Shown in pieces: positions 32,072-44,144 of a stretch of 64,000 nt of DNA. Where the stretch lies: positions 301,431 through 365,430 of the forward strand of contig JAJFGB010000001.1 in the NCBI GenBank assembly GCA_021776335.1, written 5' to 3'. The notes beneath the pieces were generated by a model. It was given only the letters and a program-made list of their open reading frames with translations, searched no databases and was not told the DNA's origin. The stretch is from Hyphococcus sp. GTDB taxonomy: Bacteria; Pseudomonadota; Alphaproteobacteria; Caulobacterales; Parvularculaceae. A program made the translations under genes and the position numbers. Numbering within the stretch: the stretch's first letter is position 1; each line of letters opens with the position of its first letter.

Positions 32072-34909
32072 ATGCAACAGACGGTCAAAAGCGACGGCGA
32101 TCAGCAAAGGTCCTCAAGCGCCCAGATGTTGCGCGCAGGCCTGGGCGAGGCGCAGGAAGATCTTGGTCATCTTGCCCGTGTTGCGGCACAAGCACTGTCG
32201 GCGCCAAGCACATTCATAGCGTTGCTCGAAGACGATATTTTGCATTATGGCGCGCAGCACGGTGACGACGATCAAGACAACGATCGTGACAAGAAAATCT
32301 GCCAACGTATCCTTGGCGAGAATGATTTGTTTATCGTTTCAGACGCAACAACAAATACAGAGTTCTCATCCATTCTGGGACTTTCGAAACCGAACACCCG
32401 GTTCATTGCCGGCGCACCCATCGTCGGTGAAGACGGCTGCCGCGTTGGCGCAGTATGCGTTCTCGACACTGTGGTAAGGCCTGATCTAACCCCACAAAAG
32501 CTCAACGTTCTGTATTCCGTCGCCAAGCTTGCAGGGGAAGCGATGAGCAAGCGAAGCCTTAAGCAAAAAGGTGAGACAGCTTTTGCAATTCTGCAAAAAG
32601 CGCAAAAGCTAAGTCGAATTGCCCATTTCGTTTTTGACCCTGTTGGGTTCAAAACCATCAGTATTTCAAAGTCGCTTGGCATTTTTTATGATGGCGACGG
32701 TGAAACCGAGCGCGGCCTTGATTTTGGTGAATTTGTTGATCGCTTGCATCCAGACGATTCTGATCTTGTGCAGCACGCAATCGGAGAGGGCGTTAAGGGC
32801 GGGGCCGCAATCAATATCAAATTTCGTGTTGAATCGCACAAGGGCGCCTATCGAAATATCTGGTTGAATGCTGAGCCGCTTCAACTCGACAATTCGGCAG
32901 CTGCGCCATGGATCGGCATCATGCAGGACGTCACCGATCAGGTTCGAAAAGAACAAGACCTTAAGGAAAATATTGCATTTCGGCGCGCGGCGACCGACAC
33001 GGCGTTGGATTGCGTTATCACAATTGATGCAAGTGGAAAAATCAAGGCGTTCAACCCGGCCGCGGAGCAAATCTTTGGGTATGCAAGGCAAGATGTTGTC
33101 GGCGCTCCCCTGGCAGAAATAATAATCCCTGAAGAACTGCGCGGCGCCCATCTCGCCGGTATCAAGCGGTACCTTGAAACCGGAGAGCATAATGTGCTCG
33201 GCAAGCGCATTGAAGTTGAGGCTATTACAAAGTCCGGCGCCCGTTTGCCAATTGAATTGGCGATCACACCATTCGAGGTGAATGGCGAGAAACATTTTAC
33301 AGCATATCTGAGGGACATATCTGAACGTAAAGCTGCAGCAGTTGAGATCGAGGAATCGGCTGCTTGCCTCAAAACGGCGAAGGAAGAAGCTGAAGCAGCC
33401 AACGCCGCGAAGTCTGATTTCCTCGCGACGATCAGCCACGAAATACGCACGCCGTTAAACGGCATCATAGGCGGCCTCAGTCTCATTAAGGACGAGCTTG
33501 ATCGAACCGATCACCGAAGTCATGCCGAAGTTGCATATAACTCGGCGGAGACGTTACTGGTGTTGATCAATGACATACTAGATTTGTCAAAAATTGAAGC
33601 CGGAAAGCTGGAAATTGAAAACACGAATTTTGATCTTTATGAATGCATCAGAAGTGCGGCTGATCTTTTTAAAGCGAATGCGGATGAAAAAGGGCTTGAG
33701 TTTGCTGTTGAGATTCCGAACGATCTAACCCGATGGCGCGTTGGCGATTCGGGACGGATTCGCCAGGTACTTTTGAATTTTATCTCCAACGCTATCAAGT
33801 TTACCGATGCTGGAGGTGTTGTTCTGTCCGTATCAGAAATCAACAATGAACAAGTCGTGTTGAGCGTTGCCGATACAGGGATCGGCATCCAATCAAAATA
33901 TCAAGACAAGTTATTTACCAGCTTCCAACAGGTCGATGCATCATACAAGCGCCGGTTTTCCGGCAGCGGCCTTGGCCTCGCAATTTCCAGGCAACTTGCG
34001 GAGTTGATGGGCGGTGACATTCGTTTTTCAAGCGTAGAAAGCAAAGGGAGTACCTTTTCCATGACCCTTCCCCTTAAAATAGGCGCCGCTCAGGAAACAC
34101 CATACGCGCAGGAAATAGAGCCCGACCGGTTGAGGGGCAATATTCTCATCGCCGAAGACAGCGCAACCAACGCGCTGGTGGCGCGGGCGCTCCTTCGCTT
34201 GAAAGGCGCAAAAGTCGATCACGTTTCCAACGGCGCTGAAGCTGTGGCGGCCTGCCGCGTGCGGCCTTACGATTTGATTCTCATGGATCTGGCAATGCCG
34301 GAGATGGATGGCTTTGAAGCCACGCGGGAAATTCGCAGCTCCAACACCGCGAACAAGGAGACGCCAATTGTGGCGCTTACGGCCAATGTTTCGGAGGACG
34401 ATCGCAAGGAATGCATGAATGTCGGGATGAATGATCTCGTCGCGAAACCAATTAATCGACGGCAGTTTCTGAATACGGTCGCCGACTGGCTTGGGAATGA
34501 CGAAATCTGTGGGTCAGAAGAGGAGGCGGATTTCGATTCAATTACTGTCTTCGATCCAAACCGATTTGAGACTGAATGGCGTGACCTTCCGCTTTCGGCG
34601 CAGTTTGAAATCATCACGGTCTTTATGGACGAAACGAAAGCCCGACAGATGAAGATTGCGCGCGCGATGCTTAAACAGGACTGGCGCATAGCTGAAAATG
34701 AGGCGCACGCGCTCAAGAGTTCGGCCGGCAATATTGGCGCTGAACGCCTGCATCTGCTGGCCAAACGGATTGAAGCGCATTTGAAAGCAAGTGAACGAGA
34801 CGCTGCCGCGGCGCTCATTCTGCGCGTACCTGGCGTCTGTTCGGATACGATTGACAGTATCGAAAAGCAGCACGCCAGAATTGGCGAGAAGGCAAAGTCA
34901 AATGGGTAA
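32072..34909 (+). CDS. Cytoplasmic hybrid histidine kinase GAF-PAS-PAS-HisKA-HATPase-REC-Hpt
   Basis: GAF (RFIAGAPIV..GAVCVLD), PAS (RLHPDD), FixL-like PAS (FNPAAEQIFGY..AHLAGIKRYLETGE), FLATISHEIRTPLNG, DLILMDLAMPEMDG, Hpt AHALKSSAGNIGA; no TM; GAGGAA RBS before ATG 32072. Confidence 0.93.
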   Translation: MQQTVKSDGDQQRSSSAQMLRAGLGEAQEDLGHLARVAAQALSAPSTFIALLEDDILHYGAQHGDDDQDNDRDKKICQRILGENDLFIVSDATTNTEFSSILGLSKPNTRFIAGAPIVGEDGCRVGAVCVLDTVVRPDLTPQKLNVLYSVAKLAGEAMSKRSLKQKGETAFAILQKAQKLSRIAHFVFDPVGFKTISISKSLGIFYDGDGETERGLDFGEFVDRLHPDDSDLVQHAIGEGVKGGAAINIKFRVESHKGAYRNIWLNAEPLQLDNSAAAPWIGIMQDVTDQVRKEQDLKENIAFRRAATDTALDCVITIDASGKIKAFNPAAEQIFGYARQDVVGAPLAEIIIPEELRGAHLAGIKRYLETGEHNVLGKRIEVEAITKSGARLPIELAITPFEVNGEKHFTAYLRDISERKAAAVEIEESAACLKTAKEEAEAANAAKSDFLATISHEIRTPLNGIIGGLSLIKDELDRTDHRSHAEVAYNSAETLLVLINDILDLSKIEAGKLEIENTNFDLYECIRSAADLFKANADEKGLEFAVEIPNDLTRWRVGDSGRIRQVLLNFISNAIKFTDAGGVVLSVSEINNEQVVLSVADTGIGIQSKYQDKLFTSFQQVDASYKRRFSGSGLGLAISRQLAELMGGDIRFSSVESKGSTFSMTLPLKIGAAQETPYAQEIEPDRLRGNILIAEDSATNALVARALLRLKGAKVDHVSNGAEAVAACRVRPYDLILMDLAMPEMDGFEATREIRSSNTANKETPIVALTANVSEDDRKECMNVGMNDLVAKPINRRQFLNTVADWLGNDEICGSEEEADFDSITVFDPNRFETEWRDLPLSAQFEIITVFMDETKARQMKIARAMLKQDWRIAENEAHALKSSAGNIGAERLHLLAKRIEAHLKASERDAAAALILRVPGVCSDTIDSIEKQHARIGEKAKSNG

Positions 34910-36317
34910 ACCGAAGGCAAAAGTCCTCGTTGTTGAAGACAGCCCGTCACTCGCTCGTACATATACGGCCCAGCTTGAACACAGCGGATATGAAACAAGC
35001 ATCGCTGATACGGGCGCCAAGGCGCGCGCGATTGTCCAGGAGTTTGACTGTGTTCTGCTCGACCTTGGGCTTCCTGACGAAGACGGACTTGACATTTTAA
35101 CGGATTGGAACGCGGCGGAGCGGCCCGTGATCGTGATTACCGGGAATGGATCGATCAACACTGCCGTTGATGCAATGCAGTGCGGCGCCGTCGACTTTCT
35201 CGTCAAGCCTTTCCAGAGTGAACGGCTGATCACAACCGTTGCCAACGCAATTGAGAAAAGTCGCTTAAGCCAAATAGTGAATACATATGAAAGCAAGATC
35301 GACCGAAAATCATTTGGCGGTTTCGTCGGCGACACACTTGAAATGCAGGCGGTTTATCAAACATTGGAAAGCGCTGCGAGCAGCAAAGCGACCGCTTTCA
35401 TCATTGGTGAGAGCGGCGTTGGTAAGGAACTTGCGGCGCGCGCGGTACATGATTACAGCCCCCGTGCGGGTAAGCCATTTGTGGCGCTCAATTGCGGCGC
35501 GATTCCGCGAGATCTGCTTGAGAGCGAGTTATTCGGACATATCAAGGGCGCATTTACAGGCGCTACGTCGGATCGGGAGGGGGCGGCGGCGCGCGCGAAT
35601 GGCGGCACATTGTTTCTGGATGAAATCACCGAGATGGATATCTCGCTGCAACCAAAGCTTCTGCGTTTTCTGCAGCTTGGCAGTTTTCAAAAAGTCGGTG
35701 GCGACAAAACGATCGAAACTGACATTCGAATTGTGGCGGCGACAAATAGAACGCCCCTTGAATGTGTGCGTTTGGGTTTATTGCGAGAGGATCTCTATTA
35801 TCGGTTGAATGTGTTGCCGATTGAGTTGCCGCCTCTCCGGGACCACGCTGGAGATATCGCAAAGATCGCGTCTGAATTCCTGGTCGAATATGCCAATGAA
35901 GAGGGGAAGAATTTCTCGGAGTTCACAAACACGGCAATCGAAGCGCTTCAACAACATGACTGGCCAGGCAATGTTCGGGAACTACAAAATGTCATCAGAC
36001 AAATCGTTGTCCTGAATGATGGCCCTGTCGTGCAGCCGTCCATGGTGATATCGTTGTTAATGGACAAGGTATCGACGGCAGGACGCCTGTTACCAGCAGC
36101 AACGGATATTGAGCCCATAAGCAGCGCATCGGCTGGGTTTTCAAATCGCGAGTTTGAACTGAAACCACTTTGGCAGATCGAGCTTGACGCGATTGACGAC
36201 GCGATAGCGCGTTGTGACGGAAATATTCAAAAAGCCTCCCGATTGTTGGACATCAGTCCATCGACAATCTACCGCAAACGCGAGCGCGCCAGAGGGCGAT
36301 CTTCTGACGTTGCGTGA
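34902..36317 (+). CDS. LuxO-like sigma54-dependent response regulator (REC-AAA+-Fis HTH)
   Basis: LLDLGLPD receiver, ESAASSKA, GESGVGKE, ESELFGHIKGAFTGA, WPGNVRELQN, PLWQIE..AI..CDGNI..LDISPSTIYRK; overlaps the kinase stop codon. Confidence 0.93.
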   Translation: MGKPKAKVLVVEDSPSLARTYTAQLEHSGYETSIADTGAKARAIVQEFDCVLLDLGLPDEDGLDILTDWNAAERPVIVITGNGSINTAVDAMQCGAVDFLVKPFQSERLITTVANAIEKSRLSQIVNTYESKIDRKSFGGFVGDTLEMQAVYQTLESAASSKATAFIIGESGVGKELAARAVHDYSPRAGKPFVALNCGAIPRDLLESELFGHIKGAFTGATSDREGAAARANGGTLFLDEITEMDISLQPKLLRFLQLGSFQKVGGDKTIETDIRIVAATNRTPLECVRLGLLREDLYYRLNVLPIELPPLRDHAGDIAKIASEFLVEYANEEGKNFSEFTNTAIEALQQHDWPGNVRELQNVIRQIVVLNDGPVVQPSMVISLLMDKVSTAGRLLPAATDIEPISSASAGFSNREFELKPLWQIELDAIDDAIARCDGNIQKASRLLDISPSTIYRKRERARGRSSDVA

Positions 36318-36350
36318 CATAAGCTAACACTCTCTGACAACACTCGAATC

Positions 36351-36383
36351 GCGCGCCTCCTGGTGAGGCTGCGCGCTTTTTTT
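36351..36383 (+). terminator. Rho-independent terminator after the activator gene
   Basis: GCGCGCCTC-CTGGT-GAGGC(T)GCGC stem followed by T7. Confidence 0.75.
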
Positions 36384-36412
36384 GGCAGTGCTAACGACAT
36401 TTGCACCGTGTA

Positions 36413-36545
36413 CTGCAAATTGCATCGGTTGCGTTGCATATTGCTTCGCCTGCCATGGCTGCAACGGCTGTTATGCAATCGCTGCAACCATAACCGATTG
36501 ATCTAATTGTATATATTTCCGTTCGCGTAATGGCTCGGTCTTTGA
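36413..36545 (+). promoter_or_regulatory. Sigma54-type promoter P2 upstream of sqdB
   Basis: CTGCA-AAT-TGCAT 36413-36425; TTGCA-TAT-TGCTT 36434-36446; IHF-like GATCAATCGGTTA (minus strand, 36491-36503); TGGCTCG-GTCT-TTGA 36531-36545. Confidence 0.7.
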
Positions 36546-36611
36546 GTGTCTTTGCGCATTGGAAGCGCCGCCATCGGATGCTGCGCACAGTTTGGAACAG
36601 GAGTATCATTC

Positions 36612-37823
36612 GTGGAAAAGAAAATTGTTATCCTCGGCGGAGATGGATTTTGCGGCTGGCCTACAGCGCTCCATCTTTCAGCTAAAGACTATAACGTCAC
36701 CATTGTTGACAATCTTTCGAGGCGCTTGATTGACGTTGAGCTCGGCGCTTCAAGCTTGACGCCGATCAAGTCGACCGAACGGCGGCTCGAGGCCTGGACG
36801 CGCATTACCGGCCGGCAGATTAACTTCGAGAAAATCGACGCTGCAAAAGACTATGAAGCGCTGAAGTCGCTGCTCAATCGTGTACGTCCCGATACAGTCA
36901 TTCATTTCGCAGAGCAGCGCGCAGCGCCCTATTCGATGAAAAGCGCCACCCACAAGACCTACACTGTAGATAATAATATCGGTGCGACACACAACTTGCT
37001 GTCAATTCTCTCTGAACTCGAACTGGATACTCATGTCGTTCATCTGGGGACCATGGGTGTTTATGGTTATGATGATGCTGGTCTCGAGATTCCGGAAGGG
37101 TATTTACCAGTTCAGATAAAAACTGAAACCGGCGAATTTATTTCCCGAGAAGTGCTTTACCCGACAGATCCCGGCAGCGTCTATCATATGACGAAGTCCA
37201 TGGATCAGCTTCTTTTTCAGTTTTACGCCAAGAATGACGGCATTCGCGTCACAGATCTTCACCAGGGCATCGTTTGGGGGACGCAGACCGAAGAAACACG
37301 GCTGTCGGAATCACTGATTAATCGATTTGACTATGACGGCGATTACGGCACGGTCCTGAACCGTTTTTTGATGCAAGCTGCAGTCGGTCATCCGCTTACC
37401 GTACACGGCACCGGAGGCCAAACACGTGCCTTCATCCATATACAAGACACCGTTCGGTGTATTGCGCTTGCGGTGGAAAACCCGCCGGCGCGCGGCGCGC
37501 GCGTAAAAATTCTCAATCAAATAACCGAATGCCATCGCGTTCGCGATCTGGCGAGCATTGTTTCGAAGGTGACAGGTGCGAAGGTCGCGTTTGTCGATAA
37601 TCCACGTAAAGAAGCCGATGAGAATGATCTGCGCGTTTCAAATGCCACCTTCATCGACCTCGGACTGAAACCAACCACCCTTGAAAATGGATTGCTTGCG
37701 GAAACCATGGATATCGCCGTGAAGTACGCGCTGCGCCACGATCCCGCAATGATCCCTTGCGTTTCCACCTGGACCTCAACGCAGCGCCCTGGCGAAGTTA
37801 AAGAACGCCAAGCGATCGCTTAA
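36612..37823 (+). CDS. sqdB: UDP-sulfoquinovose synthase
   Basis: GGDGFCGWPTALHLS, HFAEQRAAPYSMKS, LGTMGVYG, YHMTKSMD, RFDYDGDYGTVLNRF, HGTGGQTRAFIHI, all diagnostic of alphaproteobacterial SqdB; AGGAG RBS before GTG 36612. Confidence 0.95.
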   Translation: MEKKIVILGGDGFCGWPTALHLSAKDYNVTIVDNLSRRLIDVELGASSLTPIKSTERRLEAWTRITGRQINFEKIDAAKDYEALKSLLNRVRPDTVIHFAEQRAAPYSMKSATHKTYTVDNNIGATHNLLSILSELELDTHVVHLGTMGVYGYDDAGLEIPEGYLPVQIKTETGEFISREVLYPTDPGSVYHMTKSMDQLLFQFYAKNDGIRVTDLHQGIVWGTQTEETRLSESLINRFDYDGDYGTVLNRFLMQAAVGHPLTVHGTGGQTRAFIHIQDTVRCIALAVENPPARGARVKILNQITECHRVRDLASIVSKVTGAKVAFVDNPRKEADENDLRVSNATFIDLGLKPTTLENGLLAETMDIAVKYALRHDPAMIPCVSTWTSTQRPGEVKERQAIA

Positions 37824-37844
37824 GGAAAACGGAGGTTTATCACC

Positions 37845-39569
37845 ATGCGTCTCATGATCATTGGCATAACCGCACTTGGATTAGCGGCTCTTGCCATGAT
37901 CATTGCGGATGGCCGGCTGTTTAACTCGCTCGGCTTCGCCTCCCTTTGGGGGGGCGATGTCCGGCAAGTGCGGTTTGCTAATGATGCATGGGCGCCGAGG
38001 CAAAAGCGCGACACAATTGTGATCCCGGTGGCGCATGGACAATGGAAGACGATGTCGGGTTTTCCGTCCTATGCGTCCTTTGTGTTCCCGCTGACACAAC
38101 ACACGCAGATTGAGGCGGGCGCCTTTGTTCTGGAATTTTCATTGCAGCTACCCTCGTCGGGTGGCGGCGCGATGCGGGTGATGATCAACAATGAAAAACG
38201 GGCGGAGCTGCTATTTGAACGGGATCGGACGCGTTACCGAATAACTGTTGAACTGACGGATGCGGATTTAAAAAAAGGGGAGCTGTTTGTAGCGCTGTCG
38301 GCGGACGGATATGGGGCCGGTGGGGAATGTCCCGATGATCGTTCGCGGATCGCGATCATCGAAATCAAGCCGAACACCAGGGTCGAGTTGCGTCTGGCGG
38401 CGCCAATCAGTCACCCGGCAGATGCGGCAATACTGGCTGGCGATCCGATCCGTTTGTTGATGTCGGACGATAATATGCAGCTGCATCGCGAACGAACACT
38501 CGCCCTCGCGCTGAGGCTTGAACAAAAAGGCAGACGGGTTGAATTCGTGGCAAAGGACGCAGTTCGCAACCGGATTTCTATTCGCATCGACCCGAAAACC
38601 AACAAACCACGATTTGACCGTCGCATGAATGAAGTCGTCATGTCTGGACCTCGCGATGCCGCTTTGCTGCGCCCAGCCAATGTCAGCTCGAGCGCCGGCC
38701 CAAATTTCGGCAAGGACGATATTTTGTATGTTGAAGCGCTTGGTGCGGCTGTTCATACGCGCCAGTTTCGCCGCGAAATAAAATGGCGGATCGACTTTGA
38801 CCTAAAGGACATGCCTGACGGTGCGGCGCCGACACAGCTAAACCTGAAGCTTTTTCGTTCAGCCCTGGGCGAAGATCATGCAGGCCTTTTGTCGATCAGC
38901 TTTAATGGCGGTTTGCTTCATAGTGCGAGCAACATCGGGATTTCTAATCCGCTCAGTAAAAAAATCACTCTTCCGCAGAGTGAAATGCGGCTTGAAAATG
39001 CGCTTGAGATTTCAATCCTCACCAACGAAGACCGCATAGGTATTTGCAACCCAGGTCGCGACGCTTTTGCTCAATTATTAAAACCGACAGCGCTTACGCG
39101 ATTTCGGCCCCCTCAGGATATGCGTGCGGAGTCATTGCCTCATCGACTTAGACGGATCGGGCATGTGCAGATCTCAGCGCCTTTCGGGATGCAGAGCTCA
39201 GCCTATCGGGAGAGCATATCGCTTCTGGCGCGCATCACGCCGCCCACAATTAAACTGACAAGCAGCGAAAGACTGGTGCAAGGGCCGACAGTCCGAGCGA
39301 CGATTATTCCACTGCAAGAATTTCGCACTGAGATCGGCAAGTATCTACCACCGCCCGCCGCAATAAGAGCGGCAGGCGGTGATTACAGGCCTGATCAGGC
39401 GCCAATCATATGGGTTGGTGTGGATGCGAGCGCATTGGGATTTGCGGATCCGGCGCAGCAATATGCGCGATTAACGCGGGCATCTGCGAACAAGATTTTG
39501 AATTCAGATCGCAACGGCGTTGCAATCATCTTTGAGCTTCCGGCTATTGACGAGATAGGCGCGTCATGA
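37845..39569 (+). CDS. BcsB-like periplasmic polysaccharide co-polymerase subunit
   Basis: N-terminal hydrophobic anchor; two repeats resembling BcsB carbohydrate-binding modules (F.FPL..F.LEFS..MRVMINN..C.DD..IEIKPNTRVEL and IDFDL..LNLKL..LSISFNGGLL..LP..EN.LEI..C..AQLL). Confidence 0.6.
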   Translation: MRLMIIGITALGLAALAMIIADGRLFNSLGFASLWGGDVRQVRFANDAWAPRQKRDTIVIPVAHGQWKTMSGFPSYASFVFPLTQHTQIEAGAFVLEFSLQLPSSGGGAMRVMINNEKRAELLFERDRTRYRITVELTDADLKKGELFVALSADGYGAGGECPDDRSRIAIIEIKPNTRVELRLAAPISHPADAAILAGDPIRLLMSDDNMQLHRERTLALALRLEQKGRRVEFVAKDAVRNRISIRIDPKTNKPRFDRRMNEVVMSGPRDAALLRPANVSSSAGPNFGKDDILYVEALGAAVHTRQFRREIKWRIDFDLKDMPDGAAPTQLNLKLFRSALGEDHAGLLSISFNGGLLHSASNIGISNPLSKKITLPQSEMRLENALEISILTNEDRIGICNPGRDAFAQLLKPTALTRFRPPQDMRAESLPHRLRRIGHVQISAPFGMQSSAYRESISLLARITPPTIKLTSSERLVQGPTVRATIIPLQEFRTEIGKYLPPPAAIRAAGGDYRPDQAPIIWVGVDASALGFADPAQQYARLTRASANKILNSDRNGVAIIFELPAIDEIGAS

Positions 39570-42325
39570 CCGATGCCGTTGCAACGGAAACAAGGTCTCA
39601 AAATGAATTTCTTTGCGTTGACAGCGCACCGAAACAATATGCCTCTTTAATCCCGATATGGCGTGCGCCGGCGGCGTGTGCGCTATTTCTGGTTATTGGT
39701 TTCGCAGCGATATTTATCGTCAACCAGATCCCATTCCTGAATGCCGCTTTCCCTGATGATGATTTTATCTTCTCGCCATATACAGGCAGCCATTCCATAC
39801 CCATCCGGCTGTTTATTGTCACCTTCAGTGCATCGTTTTGCTGCTTCTGCAATGGCGACCTCAAAAACAAAACCCTGCTGTTTGCCGATATCGTGTTCAC
39901 CTATGCGCTCTACTGCGCGGTGTTCGACCTCATCAACATTATTGTTTATGAGACGTTGCAGGTTCGATATCAGCTAAGCTTCATTGAGATCGTTAGCGGA
40001 TTACTCGGTTTTTGGGTTTTCTCATTGAAACTCCTCCGGCGCGGGCGCATGCCGCCAAAGATTGAAGTCCCTTACAAGCCACAGCGAACATTTTCAACGA
40101 TCGTTCGGCTCGTGGGCGGCGCTGTCGCGGCCGGATTATTTTCGTTTTGGATCGCATCGCTTGATTTGGCGATTGTTCAGGACCTTCGAAATTTTGCACT
40201 GCTGGGCGGGATTGGTCCTGGCGTATTTCTCTTTTTGCCAGTGTTGTTTCTAATCTGGTTTGTTTTAGCGACCTATGACCGGCTGACCATGAAAGTGGGC
40301 GACTTTACGCCTCCGCTGACATTTGTTGTTCCTGCCCACAACGAAGAATACATCATCGCTGATACAATCTTCGCGATGGATGAGGCTGCCTGTAATTACA
40401 ACGGCAATGTGATCATTCTCATCATGAATAACAATTCCGACGACCGAACAAGTGAGGTCGCCGAGGCTGCGCTGGCAAAATGCAAGGCGGCGACAGGAAA
40501 AGTGATCGACGTCCCGAAGCCAGGAAAATCGAATGCGCTAAACGCAGGTCTTGCTGCAGCCGAAACCGAATTTTTCGTGCGCGTTGACGCCGATACATTG
40601 ATTGCGCCGGATTCAATCCACCGCGCCATGCGATATTTCTATGACCCTAAAGTCGGCGTGGTCGGCGGATTGCCTATACCGCCAGGCGGGGCGCTTTTCG
40701 ACAATGCGCGATTCCTCGAGGTGATTGTAAAACACGGTTATTACTCGGTTGCGCTCGGTGCGATCAATGGCGTTGTTGGCGTGCCGGGCATGTTAGCGCT
40801 CTATCGCACCGAGCTCCCAAGGCAGCTTGGTGGATTTGTTGAAGGCATGAACGGTGAGGACACCGACATGTCGTTGCGCATCGGCGAGATGGGATATGAG
40901 GTCGTCGTTGATCCAAAGGTGACCTACATCTCCGAAGTGCCTGCGAGTTACAAGCATATGCGTGAACAACGCATGCGCTGGTTCCGCTCAATCTATCATA
41001 TCTCAAGCAGGAATGGGGATTATCTCGACCGGTCATGGCTGACGATCAGGGGAAAGATTATTTTACCCTATATGCTCGTCAATTCAGCTCGCCGCGCCAT
41101 GCTCACCCCGCTCGTTATGTTTGGCGCCATCGAATATGTGACCAGTTTTAATTCAGCGAACACACTGGAGTGGCAAGCGATCTTAGCGGTGCTCATCGGG
41201 GCGCCAGCAATTGTTGCGGTTTTTGCTTCGCTGATAAACGGCTATCCGAAAGGCATTCTGGCGCTTCCAGATTATTTGGTGTTTCGCGCGATCCGCGCTT
41301 ACCTGACGTTAGAATCGCTTCTCAGCATTATCATTGCGCCGGACCCGGAAACCGTTGCGCGCGCGCAAGTAGTGCGACGTAAAAGGAAGGTATGGATTGC
41401 TCGCGCCCGGGCGGGGTTCGCCGGCGCTGTGCTTTCTGTTGCCGCTATCTTTAACGCGAACGCGAACGATCCAGGCCTTTTAGTTGAGGCGACAATGGGC
41501 GCTCAACGGCAGGGCCTGATCGTCGAGGAAGATGACGTCAAGGCGAGCGGCCTTGCCGTTGGCGTCTTTGCTGACGCATCACTGATTTATGACCAAAGGC
41601 TCAGAAAAAAGGACTTCGTGAAGGTTAAAAGTAACCTGAGGAAGGATATTTATCCGGATCGCTCTGGGTTAGACACGATACACTATCGTGGTGAGCTGCA
41701 ATATCGGCGACAATTGAGTAAAAAATGCAGTTGCTGGTTACAAGCGACAATGCGCTACGACCAAAAAAAACGCGATGGTGAGTTTCTCTTTCGACGGGAG
41801 GCGGCGCAAGTTAAGCTGTGGCGCCGGCACAACAAACAACATAACGGGTTCATACAGCTGGGTGCGAGCAACCTTGACTACAACGACGCACGCCTCGCAG
41901 GGTTTGATCAGCGAAGATACAGAATAGATGTTGGCCATCAATGGCGGCCGGCAGACTCACGGCTTCGATTGAATGGGGTGATCTTTGCGGAACACTCCGA
42001 TGCTGACGCGGCTCGGTTTGATTTTCAATCTCTTGGCGCACAGTTACGCGCAGAGAGGCAATTTGCTAGCTCAGCGACGAAAATGCATGTTGCGCTGTTT
42101 TGGCGTGAACGTCGCTATGAAGGTGTATTCAGTCGAGATTTTCCAATGTCGCGGAGCGATAGGGCGCTAAGAGCGTCGGTCGGCCTTTCACATCCAGTCA
42201 GGAAAAGACTTACCGTGACGGGGGCATTGGGCTGGGAACAAAATCGCTCCAATATTCCCATTCGGCGGCATCAGGGCTTAACGTTTCGGATCACGCTTAG
42301 CGCCAAATTGCCGATCCTGGATTGA
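39566..42325 (+). CDS. Processive GT2 polysaccharide synthase fused to an outer-membrane beta-barrel
   Basis: About six N-terminal TMs; VPAHNEE, KSNALNAG, DADT, GEDTD and QRMRW (D,D,D,QxxRW); further TMs; internal signal-peptide-like segment; C-terminal region of about 290 aa with amphipathic beta-strand pattern. ATGA overlap with the upstream gene. Confidence 0.85.
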   Translation: MTDAVATETRSQNEFLCVDSAPKQYASLIPIWRAPAACALFLVIGFAAIFIVNQIPFLNAAFPDDDFIFSPYTGSHSIPIRLFIVTFSASFCCFCNGDLKNKTLLFADIVFTYALYCAVFDLINIIVYETLQVRYQLSFIEIVSGLLGFWVFSLKLLRRGRMPPKIEVPYKPQRTFSTIVRLVGGAVAAGLFSFWIASLDLAIVQDLRNFALLGGIGPGVFLFLPVLFLIWFVLATYDRLTMKVGDFTPPLTFVVPAHNEEYIIADTIFAMDEAACNYNGNVIILIMNNNSDDRTSEVAEAALAKCKAATGKVIDVPKPGKSNALNAGLAAAETEFFVRVDADTLIAPDSIHRAMRYFYDPKVGVVGGLPIPPGGALFDNARFLEVIVKHGYYSVALGAINGVVGVPGMLALYRTELPRQLGGFVEGMNGEDTDMSLRIGEMGYEVVVDPKVTYISEVPASYKHMREQRMRWFRSIYHISSRNGDYLDRSWLTIRGKIILPYMLVNSARRAMLTPLVMFGAIEYVTSFNSANTLEWQAILAVLIGAPAIVAVFASLINGYPKGILALPDYLVFRAIRAYLTLESLLSIIIAPDPETVARAQVVRRKRKVWIARARAGFAGAVLSVAAIFNANANDPGLLVEATMGAQRQGLIVEEDDVKASGLAVGVFADASLIYDQRLRKKDFVKVKSNLRKDIYPDRSGLDTIHYRGELQYRRQLSKKCSCWLQATMRYDQKKRDGEFLFRREAAQVKLWRRHNKQHNGFIQLGASNLDYNDARLAGFDQRRYRIDVGHQWRPADSRLRLNGVIFAEHSDADAARFDFQSLGAQLRAERQFASSATKMHVALFWRERRYEGVFSRDFPMSRSDRALRASVGLSHPVRKRLTVTGALGWEQNRSNIPIRRHQGLTFRITLSAKLPILD

Positions 42326-42336
42326 TTAACGCAATG

Positions 42337-42486
42337 CCTCAAATTGCGCGCATTCTCTCACATTGCTCTTGCATATTGCGGCAGTTAGCCGGCCATCAAA
42401 ACTCGTGAACCGAACACTGCGCCAATATATTGTTTTTGCTTACTCTTTTGCGACCGCGGGGCTGCGCAGGATGGCCTGGCTTTTGA
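42337..42486 (+). promoter_or_regulatory. Sigma54-type promoter P3 upstream of GT2-cysH
   Basis: CCTCA-AAT-TGCGC 42337-42349; TTGCA-TAT-TGCGG 42369-42381 (11-mer TTGCATATTGC identical to P2); IHF-like AAACAATATATTG (minus strand, 42423-42435); TGGCCTG-GCTT-TTGA 42472-42486. Confidence 0.65.
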
Positions 42487-42514
42487 AGCTCTTGAGGGGA
42501 GAGAAAGGTCGAAC

Positions 42515-43447
42515 ATGCCAGATAAAATGCAAAAACGAAAAGGCGGCCGTTTTGGTTTCCGCAATATACGACCGCGGGCGCGATCATGCTCAGCATACGA
42601 CGTCAGTGTGATCATTCCTTATCATAACGCATCGCGGACAATCCGCCGCGCGGTCGCCTCCATTGTTTTTCAACGTCACGTCAGATGCGAGATTGTTATT
42701 ATCAATGACGGCTCGTCTCTTGAAGAGACCGCGAAGCTGTCGTCGCTTCGTGGAAAGCGGAATATTCGCGTTGTTGATGTGCTTCATCGCGGCGCTGCCG
42801 CTGCACGCAATTTGGGCGCAGAGCTCACCCGGTCCGCCGTCATCGCTTTCCTTGATGCGGATGATGAGATTCCCGCACGCGCGTTTACCAGAAAGATCAA
42901 GAAATTAAACAGCAATCCGGATATCGGCCTCGTTTTTGGACGAACGCGCATTTGCGTTAATACACAAAAACCGACTGATGAAATTACGCCATTTCAGTCT
43001 TCGCTTACACTTGAGGAAGTGCTCGGTTCATTTCCCGTGCTGACAGCGTCAAATATGCTTGTTCGCCGAGCGGCGTTTGAGGATATCGGAGGCTTCGACG
43101 AAGGATTACGTGACGCCAGCGATCAAGAGTGGACTGCTCGGCTTTGCTCGCATGAAAAATGGGACGCTGCCGGCGTTAAAAGCGTGACGGTCCGGAAATT
43201 TGTCGGCCGTTCGTCGCTCTGGGCGAATCCTGATGCGATGGAACAGGCGTGGCGCCAGGTTCTCGCTTCACATATGGCAAAGGGAAACCAACTGGAGGAC
43301 GGGGAAGCGGCGCGAATTTCGGACCTGTTTTATCAGCGCCTCGCCAGTTACGCCGGGCGCTATGTCAATGTCCATAACAAATCGCGCTTCTTTGAACTGA
43401 TCCAAATCTGGAGGGGGCAGCGTGATGCAATTGCATACAGCTCATAG
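42515..43447 (+). CDS. Soluble GT2 glycosyltransferase
   Basis: VSVIIPYHNA, IVIINDGSS, GAAAARNLG, IAFLDADD, GGFDEGL..SD. Confidence 0.9.
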   Translation: MPDKMQKRKGGRFGFRNIRPRARSCSAYDVSVIIPYHNASRTIRRAVASIVFQRHVRCEIVIINDGSSLEETAKLSSLRGKRNIRVVDVLHRGAAAARNLGAELTRSAVIAFLDADDEIPARAFTRKIKKLNSNPDIGLVFGRTRICVNTQKPTDEITPFQSSLTLEEVLGSFPVLTASNMLVRRAAFEDIGGFDEGLRDASDQEWTARLCSHEKWDAAGVKSVTVRKFVGRSSLWANPDAMEQAWRQVLASHMAKGNQLEDGEAARISDLFYQRLASYAGRYVNVHNKSRFFELIQIWRGQRDAIAYSS

Positions 43448-44144
43448 TCCGTCGGGTTTTCATGCGGCGCAACCGATTGTTGATTTGCTGAATGTTGAGC
43501 ACGAAAATGTGCGCGCAGAATGCATTCTCCGAAATGCCCTTGATCTTTTCAGCGGCGAAATCGTTCTGGTGTCATCTTTCGGGGCCGATGCGGCTGTGCT
43601 CCTTCATATGCTCGCAGAATTTGACAAGGATATACCAGTCATTTTCCTGGATACCGGACGTCACTTTGAAAAAACACTTCACTACCGCCAGACCCTGGCG
43701 CACCAGCTCGGCCTTCGCAATGTTCGATCGTCTCTCCCGAATCGACTTGCACTGGCCGAGCTGGACCCGGACGGCAGCCTGCATCAGCTGGACCCAGACG
43801 CGTGTTGCGCCATTCGAAAAAAGGCCGTCTTGAAAAGCGCATTATCGCCATTCAGCGCATGGATATCGGGCCGAAAACGTTACCAGACGGCGGCCCGGCA
43901 AAATATCCGCATATTCGAGTGCGACAATGAAATGCGTATCAAACTAAGCCCTCTTGCTGATTGGTCAGAGCAAGATATTGAGCACTACTATGAAGCGCAC
44001 AAATTGCCGCGACATCCGCTATGGGCGGAAGGCTATCGGTCGATCGGATGCGCGCCATGCACGTCGCCAACCATTCAGGGAGAAGATGCACGCGATGGCC
44101 GCTGGAGCGCCCGCGGCAAAACTGAATGCGGAATTCATTTGTGA
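43425..44144 (+). CDS. cysH: APS/PAPS reductase, Fe-S (APS-reductase) type
   Basis: SSFGADAAVLLHM, FLDTGRHF, CCAIRK, SIGCAPCT, RDGRW, KTECGIH; overlaps the GT2 stop. Confidence 0.93.
   Translation: MQLHTAHSPSGFHAAQPIVDLLNVEHENVRAECILRNALDLFSGEIVLVSSFGADAAVLLHMLAEFDKDIPVIFLDTGRHFEKTLHYRQTLAHQLGLRNVRSSLPNRLALAELDPDGSLHQLDPDACCAIRKKAVLKSALSPFSAWISGRKRYQTAARQNIRIFECDNEMRIKLSPLADWSEQDIEHYYEAHKLPRHPLWAEGYRSIGCAPCTSPTIQGEDARDGRWSARGKTECGIHL

Follow-up and report, generated by a model that had tools for sequence, protein, structure and literature searches.

The fused reading frame

The window analysed here is a 64,000-nucleotide stretch of the Hyphococcus sp. genome (Alphaproteobacteria, Caulobacterales, Parvularculaceae; GenBank assembly GCA_021776335.1, contig JAJFGB010000001.1, positions 301,431 to 365,430), and all coordinates below are counted from its first nucleotide and lie on its + strand. 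At positions 39566-42325, it carries a single uninterrupted open reading frame (ORF) of 919 amino acids (aa; 102.8 kDa, stop codon within these coordinates), in which a polysaccharide synthase of glycosyltransferase family 2 (GT2) continues into a predicted outer-membrane-type beta-barrel. An earlier examination of the letters alone, hereafter the sequence-only reading, had described this ORF as an in-frame fusion in which a basic n-region, a hydrophobic h-region and an A-N-A cleavage site precede the barrel. This description is borne out by the open 919-aa frame, by its homologues and by structural modelling.

The synthase half begins with a membrane region (aa 1-245; 39566-40300) of about six to seven predicted helices, running from H33-54 to H217-241 in the AlphaFold2 model, for which a Pfam search returned no match. 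Two motifs are invariant in this region, RSQNEF.CVDSAPK (aa 10-23) and the Cys-rich FCCFCNG (aa 91-97). At 245 aa, the region is unusually long. It is followed by the GT2 catalytic domain, predicted to be cytoplasmic (aa 246-490; 40301-41035) and recognized by Pfam, motifs and Foldseek. The Pfam match spans aa 249-540 and lies above the cut-offs for Glyco_tranf_2_3 (5.9e-23), Glycos_transf_2 (1.4e-17) and Glyco_trans_2_3 (2.2e-14). The motifs of processive synthases, DAD341, GED430 and QRMRW468, are all present and are invariant across a 13-sequence alignment. Three helices close the synthase (aa 491-594; 41036-41347), modelled as H494-526, H530-557 and H561-586: two are transmembrane, and the last one (LPDYLVFRAIRAYLTLESLLSIII) is amphipathic, conserved and bears four charges. 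The same amphipathic helix is the penultimate element of synthases encoded separately from the barrel, which end 12-30 residues later. The full-length AlphaFold2 model is of moderate confidence (pLDDT 77), with its helices before residue 241 and after residue 494. Foldseek matches of the synthase include the Xenopus and Chlorella-virus HAS, BcsA, PcManGT and the chitin synthase Chs1 (E = 1e-14 to 1e-8). The enzyme is a processive, membrane-embedded GT2 polysaccharide synthase of the BcsA/HAS/PgaC/NodC type. It is not a PgaC orthologue, as the best NCBIfam model, the PgaC/IcaA equivalog TIGR03937, scores 81.5 bits against a cut-off of 422.3.

Downstream of the last helix, the junction reads ...IIIAPDPETVARAQVV-RRKRKVWIARAR-AGFAGAVLSVAAIF-NANA/NDPGLLVE, where the slash marks the predicted cut and where SLLSIIIAPDPETVARAQVV directly precedes RRKRKVWIARAR. 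Residues 595-615 (RRKRKVWIARAR; 41348-41410) make up a variable linker and a basic n-region of net charge +7; the n-region proper covers about aa 603-615, and the net charge of +7 is reached over its last 12 residues. The h-region (aa 616-629, AGFAGAVLSVAAIF; 41411-41452) counts 14 residues and is modelled as part of a helix that spans residues 2-28 of the 317 aa used as query for the C-terminal part. The c-region N-A-N-A (aa 630-633; 41453-41464) places alanines at positions -3 (A631) and -1 (A633). The segment from aa 603 to 633, with its A-N-A/N site, thus resembles a Sec-type signal peptide in its n-region charge, in the length of its h-region and in its -3/-1 residues, and departs from one in its position, as it begins at about residue 603 of 919 and not at an N-terminus. 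Signal peptidase I would be expected to cut after A633, between nucleotides 41464 and 41465.

The remaining 286 residues (aa 634-919; 41465-42322) are predicted by AlphaFold2, Foldseek and the stand-alone homologues described below to form a mature 14-stranded outer-membrane-type beta-barrel (33.1 kDa, pI 10.3, net charge +19). When the C-terminal 317 aa were modelled with a 43-sequence alignment (pLDDT 93, pTM 0.82), a helix over the signal-peptide segment was followed by a disordered N-A-N-A, with pLDDT below 50 exactly at these residues, and then by 14 antiparallel strands. These strands alternate between apolar and polar faces (mean Kyte-Doolittle hydropathy +0.76 versus -1.52). Foldseek returned 343 matches at E<=0.001, the best 50 of which are all beta-barrel membrane proteins or engineered variants; CymA is the top match (E = 1.5e-9), and OmpG (TM 0.62/0.70), BcsC and the PgaA barrel are also found. 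Sequence searches gave much less: no Pfam match, a sole NCBIfam match to EpsL that is below threshold (E = 0.0016, 17.5 bits versus a cut-off of 275) and, for the barrel profile against PDB sequences, only de novo designed transmembrane barrels (E ~0.02). Relatives of the barrel match the BBP2_2, OMP_b-brl, SlipAM and Omp85 Pfam families, weakly. On the strength of the model, the C-terminal domain is most probably an outer-membrane barrel similar to OmpG and CymA, with which it shares 14 strands and the overall fold. It differs from them in sequence (~11% identity, no family-level match), and both are uptake channels encoded by ordinary stand-alone genes. The C-terminus of the window barrel makes an atypical beta-signal; its relatives end in ...SFF, ...KLF, ...RFRF or ...DFDW, with a near-terminal aromatic residue.

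Fused and split relatives

The sequence-only reading had left open that the fusion results from an assembly artefact or from the recent loss of a stop codon, and had asked whether homologues are fused or split. Close homologues proved to be fused, and only distant ones are split. A word-indexed search brought up the representatives of seven further clusters, proteins of 917-919 aa that share this fusion and are 47-58% identical to the window protein over aa 560-919, and a genome scan added a copy in a Caulobacterales metagenome-assembled genome (MAG; locus L010), which is fused too. The fused set comes from nine independent assemblies, obtained in different projects or from different samples and with differing flanks. 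All frames of the homologues are free of stops, and their barrels are intact, being 42-53% identical to that of the window. The nine fused proteins form a monophyletic clade with 100/100 support. More divergent fused forms exist as well, one of 916 aa (P0032/L016) and others that are truncated (P0010/P0011). The tree joins the fused L016 with the split locus L015 (91/91) on long branches, and is compatible both with one and with several origins of the fusion. Among public metagenome proteins, the truncated homologues P0009 and P0011 end in CLLYTSPSPRD and GRASCRERV, respectively; these ends resemble adapter sequence that was translated where a contig stops, and we take them to be artefacts of the collection.

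Conservation varies sharply along the junction. Mean pairwise identity among eight aligned fused proteins is 88% in the GT2 domain and 90% in the last synthase helices, falls to 20% in the linker and n-region, and amounts to 39% in the h-region, 65% in the four-residue c-region, which is the best-conserved piece of the junction, and 43% in the mature barrel. The n-region is positively charged in all fused members (+2 to +7), on average above the signal peptides of stand-alone barrels (+0 to +3). Residues -3 and -1 are small in 8/8 fused homologues, whose c-regions read NANA, NAHA, NVNA, NAQA, VANA or NAAS. Selection thus appears to act on the features of a signal peptide and not on its sequence, and both halves of the protein are under purifying selection.

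When the C-terminal domain was used as query in an exhaustive HMMER search, about 40 clusters of stand-alone barrels (300-330 aa, 22-32% identical) were identified; their ordinary N-terminal signal peptides align column-for-column with the internal segment of the fused proteins. The signal-peptide-like segment is therefore more than a chance resemblance: it is kept in kind in all eight aligned fused homologues despite a linker that is only ~20% identical, it can be aligned with the signal peptides found at the N-termini of stand-alone relatives, and its uncharged stretch of h- and c-regions (18-21 residues in fused members) matches theirs (14-24 residues).

Several of the stand-alone barrels lie beside a related synthase. 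At locus L015, the order is a ~570-aa protein of unknown type, a 639-aa synthase and the barrel, whose ATG overlaps the synthase TGA (ATGA). At L042, the start of the barrel gene overlaps the synthase stop as TGATG. In G289, a genome of the same class of bacteria, locus L037 (G289:C2:58000-71000) carries the barrel, an SqdB-like gene and the ~570-aa gene on one strand and a divergent synthase gene, so that barrel and synthase belong to different transcription units. This arrangement shows the module to be functional with a separately transcribed pore. These three systems (L015/P0012, L042/P0014 and G289) resemble the window locus in their synthases (37-52% identity), in their barrels (25-32%) and in the presence nearby of ~570-aa and SqdB-like genes; they differ from it in that the barrel has a gene to itself, complete with start and N-terminal signal peptide, which either overlaps the synthase gene by 1-4 nt or lies in another transcription unit. 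On one further contig, the barrel is upstream of the synthase. Finally, L012 (Pontivivens insulae) and L013 (a Hyphomicrobiales MAG) carry a ~600-aa synthase (54% identity) and the ~570-aa upstream gene, with no barrel adjoining the synthase at the locus itself.

As judged from the ~40 stand-alone clusters, the split loci L015 and L042 and the separate transcription unit of G289, the C-terminal domain normally works as a separate secreted protein. From this distribution of stand-alone barrels and split loci, we therefore conclude that the ancestral and common state is two proteins and that the fusion is derived. Such a fusion could be obtained by a single small indel at an overlapping stop and start, and has since been kept through deep divergence. 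The 919-aa ORF is thus a genuine fusion, maintained in evolution, that probably arose from adjacent genes with coupled translation, one for a synthase and one for its dedicated pore. No second copy of the barrel was found in this genome, and the barrel domain was found in none of 40 genomes of the same genus or order (24 of them of the same genus). As none of these 24 carries it, the locus looks accessory.

Fate of the fused polypeptide

By homology with HAS and BcsA, the GT domain and the helix carrying QRMRW468 would be cytoplasmic, and the two transmembrane helices after the GT domain would run in-out-in. The positive-inside rule, applied to the +7 segment (aa 595-615), indicates that this segment should stay in the cytoplasm and that the h-region should lie N-in/C-out, with A-N-A at the periplasmic face. 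In the mechanism that we propose, the synthase would be inserted co-translationally, its last amphipathic helix and the basic linker remaining cytoplasmic; the internal signal peptide would then insert in the N-in/C-out orientation, open SecYEG and set off the Sec-dependent export of the last 286 residues. The chain would be cut after A-N-A633 by signal peptidase I, and the 33.1-kDa barrel, freed to the periplasm, would be passed to periplasmic chaperones and BAM for insertion into the outer membrane. The signal peptide would stay on the 69.8-kDa synthase as an extra C-terminal transmembrane helix. Synthase and pore would thus be produced in equimolar amounts, at the same place and from one translation event. 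The machinery needed is available, as genes for one signal peptidase I and for BamA were found in the genome.

The sequence-only reading had argued that one polypeptide cannot sit in both membranes unless it is cleaved. This argument holds: in the C-terminal model, the first strand begins only about four residues after A633, so that an uncleaved chain would be unable to put the barrel in the outer membrane. Sec export, cleavage by signal peptidase I into a ~70-kDa synthase and a 33-kDa barrel, and BAM insertion make up the best reading of these sequences, to which we assign a probability of roughly 60%, because the A-x-A-type site is conserved, the h-region is short and no internal start is conserved. 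Short h-regions favour cleavage by signal peptidase and long ones give signal anchors, as shown for the enzyme of the endoplasmic reticulum (PMC2120157). We infer an outer-membrane destination for the barrel, together with the orientation and the cleavage described above; the benefit would lie in 1:1 stoichiometry or in co-localisation. Several observations weigh against this reading. The signal-peptide call combines rule-based features with an alignment to stand-alone homologues, and the full-length model is of low confidence across aa 615-635. The window barrel ends in ...SAKLPILD (42299-42322), with a Pro where close relatives have Phe. Finally, some internal initiation is possible in the window, where a motif resembling a Shine-Dalgarno (SD) sequence ends 5 nt before an in-frame ATT.

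Under internal initiation, at the GTG at 41372 or at this ATT (41396), a barrel precursor with an N-terminal signal peptide would be made directly, and the full-length chain would be a by-product or a second isoform. Codon alignment of the junction of ten fused genes, together with the anti-SD duplex energy of every candidate start, bears on this possibility. The GTG (41372-41374) is in frame, as the sequence-only reading had stated, and corresponds to codon 603; it is the only canonical internal start candidate in the window and has no SD (dG +1.5, 94th percentile). That reading had also seen no strong ribosome-binding site, which must be amended, since an SD-like AAAGGAAGG exists at 41382-41390 (dG -9.3, top 1% in-gene); the statement stands in so far as this motif precedes only an out-of-frame ATG (41392) and the in-frame ATT (the whole element spanning 41382-41398), none of them conserved. 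The idea that the out-of-frame ATG is a remnant of the start codon of the ancestral barrel gene was rejected, its frame encoding a 20-codon non-signal peptide followed by a stop. Besides the strength and spacing of the SD-like motif, the presence of a Met somewhere in the n-region of 5/8 homologues and the translational coupling of the ancestral split genes speak for internal initiation. However, neither a start codon nor an SD is conserved in position among the ten fused genes, most candidate starts in the homologues, ATGs included, lack an SD (dG +1.2 to -1.7), and in L008 and L010 the stretch from the synthase end to the h-region is entirely free of ATG, GTG and TTG. Moreover, ATT is a very poor initiator, the SD-like run merely consists of the Lys/Arg codons (AAA/AGG/AAG) of the basic n-region, and the open frame through the 20%-identical linker is itself kept in every member. 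With no shared start or SD, and with two members devoid of any canonical start, internal initiation is ruled out as the conserved mechanism, and we regard it as an unlikely source of the barrel.

The opposite possibility is that nothing is cut, the segment staying permanently in place as the final transmembrane helix and holding the barrel to the inner membrane on its periplasmic side, where the barrel might form, for instance, a vestibule guiding the polymer. Internal hydrophobic segments of polytopic proteins do usually remain transmembrane helices, and the -3/-1 rule is necessary, not sufficient, for cleavage. However, a barrel tethered some four residues from A633 would be out of reach of the outer membrane, its stand-alone homologues are ordinary secreted outer-membrane-type barrels, and the fusion is the only copy of the pore in the genome. 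A permanent anchor needs neither a short h-region nor an A-x-A site, whereas the h-region here has the 14 residues of a signal peptide and not the length of an anchor, and conservation within the junction peaks at the A-x-A-type c-region; we find such a tether improbable. Cleavage could also be carried out by another protease, or at a site other than A633/N634: the cut-site assignment is rule-based, and AcsAB, a fused synthase discussed below, is processed with no defined role of signal peptidase I, as far as the account in PMC4877109 goes. Against this, the junction has every feature of a Sec and signal peptidase I substrate, aligns with the signal peptides of homologues and offers no other conserved motif in its linker, which makes a different protease or site a rather poor candidate. 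As for an error of assembly or sequencing, or the recent loss of a stop codon that would have inactivated the gene and left a pseudogene-like fusion, stops and starts do overlap in split relatives, so that a 1-nt error could fuse them. Yet the same fusion, of the same length (917-919 aa), recurs in at least nine independent assemblies from different projects, with barrels that have diverged and are still intact and with signs of purifying selection on both halves. As the fusion has been kept through deep divergence, artefact and recent stop loss are excluded for the family, and they are very improbable explanations of the window ORF.

Gene neighbourhood and known systems

The fusion is part of a cassette that spans positions 34791-44144 of the window and comprises genes for a hybrid PAS histidine kinase, a sigma54 response regulator, an SqdB-like enzyme, a ~570-aa protein, the fusion, an optional soluble second GT2 and a protein of the PAPS-reductase family. 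This order is common to L002, L004, L005 and L007-L010, and the flanks differ between loci. The SqdB-like gene (36546-37823) encodes an NAD-dependent sugar-nucleotide enzyme, conserved beside the fusion, that scores 330 bits with the NCBIfam UDP-sulfoquinovose synthase model, below its cut-off of 575. Next to it lies the gene for a 574-aa protein (37845-39569), whose stop overlaps the start of the fusion and which is always found directly upstream of the synthase, whether the locus is fused or split. Searches of Pfam, NCBIfam and PDB sequences gave no match for this protein, which is a candidate periplasmic co-polymerase and which we propose to be BcsB-like. Downstream of the fusion, the PAPS-reductase-family gene (PF01507; 43422-44144) occupies the equivalent position at homologous loci, and its product is 50% identical to that of L010. 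The cassette suggests a sulfonated polymer of the sulfoquinovose type. In the fused clade, every mature barrel carries a strongly positive net charge (+10 to +21), the range in stand-alone relatives being -18 to +21; such basicity would be consistent with the passage of an anionic polymer through the pore. Judging by its sequence, the ORF most probably belongs to a synthase-dependent polysaccharide secretion module.

Taken as a whole, the picture would be that of a polyprotein whose halves go to different membranes after being split by signal peptidase I, with the signal peptide becoming the last transmembrane helix of the synthase, the pore being freed where the synthase sits, and the whole forming a previously undescribed, possibly sulfoquinovose-containing secretion system. 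We would give this composite picture about even odds. Machines that span the Gram-negative envelope are normally built from separately translated subunits, and how their stoichiometry and co-localisation are controlled is an open question. If the picture is correct, signal peptidase I would act as a polyprotein-processing enzyme for trans-envelope systems, and the fusion could by itself ensure a 1:1 stoichiometry and couple the inner- and outer-membrane parts in space. Since the family has both fused and split members that lend themselves to comparison, such a polyprotein would also provide a simple genetic handle on how Sec export, insertion by BAM and secretion of the polymer are coupled. 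The finding further defines an unannotated family of 14-stranded barrels tied to a small, conserved and undescribed synthase-dependent module, whose parts are the SqdB-like enzyme, the ~570-aa protein, the synthase, the pore and the PAPS-reductase-like enzyme.

Both synthase-dependent secretion modules and polyproteins split at a signal peptide are already known; the new element is that the two halves would be destined for different membranes. A literature search, limited in coverage, returned no description of this architecture or module, of an inner-membrane protein linked to an outer-membrane protein through an internal signal peptide, or of sulfoquinovose exopolysaccharide synthase systems. 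Two processed fusions come nearest in function. The FbcH cytochrome b-c1 precursor of Bradyrhizobium japonicum, in which a polytopic inner-membrane protein is joined through an internal signal sequence to an exported second protein, is split at that signal sequence. Like the window fusion, FbcH is alphaproteobacterial and carries its signal sequence internally and in frame; unlike it, both products belong to the inner-membrane bc1 complex, and family and function are unrelated. AcsAB, the BcsA-BcsB fusion of Gluconacetobacter/Komagataeibacter, is described as one polypeptide that is proteolytically processed (PMC4877109). As far as that description extends, AcsAB resembles the window fusion in that a processive GT2 synthase shares one ORF with the next secretion subunit and is processed apart from it, and differs in that the partner BcsB is periplasmic and anchored in the inner membrane, where both products stay. 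The two fusions have no sequence relation beyond the GT2 core.

The Bcs, Pga, Pel and alginate systems share with the window module an inner-membrane QxxRW GT2 synthase and a dedicated outer-membrane barrel. The canonical cyclic di-GMP (c-di-GMP) receptors PilZ, PelD or PgaCD, and a porin coupled to tetratricopeptide repeats (TPR), are not seen in the window module, a Pfam search for TPR and PilZ in the 919-aa ORF and its 574-aa neighbour having returned none; what precedes the cassette instead is a hybrid kinase with a sigma54 response regulator. The pores of these systems have 16-18 strands, whereas that of the window is predicted to have 14, with neither a TPR scaffold nor a PilZ/c-di-GMP module detected. 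The window module also differs from them in its accessory genes, which are SqdB-like and PAPS-reductase-like, and in encoding synthase and pore in one ORF.

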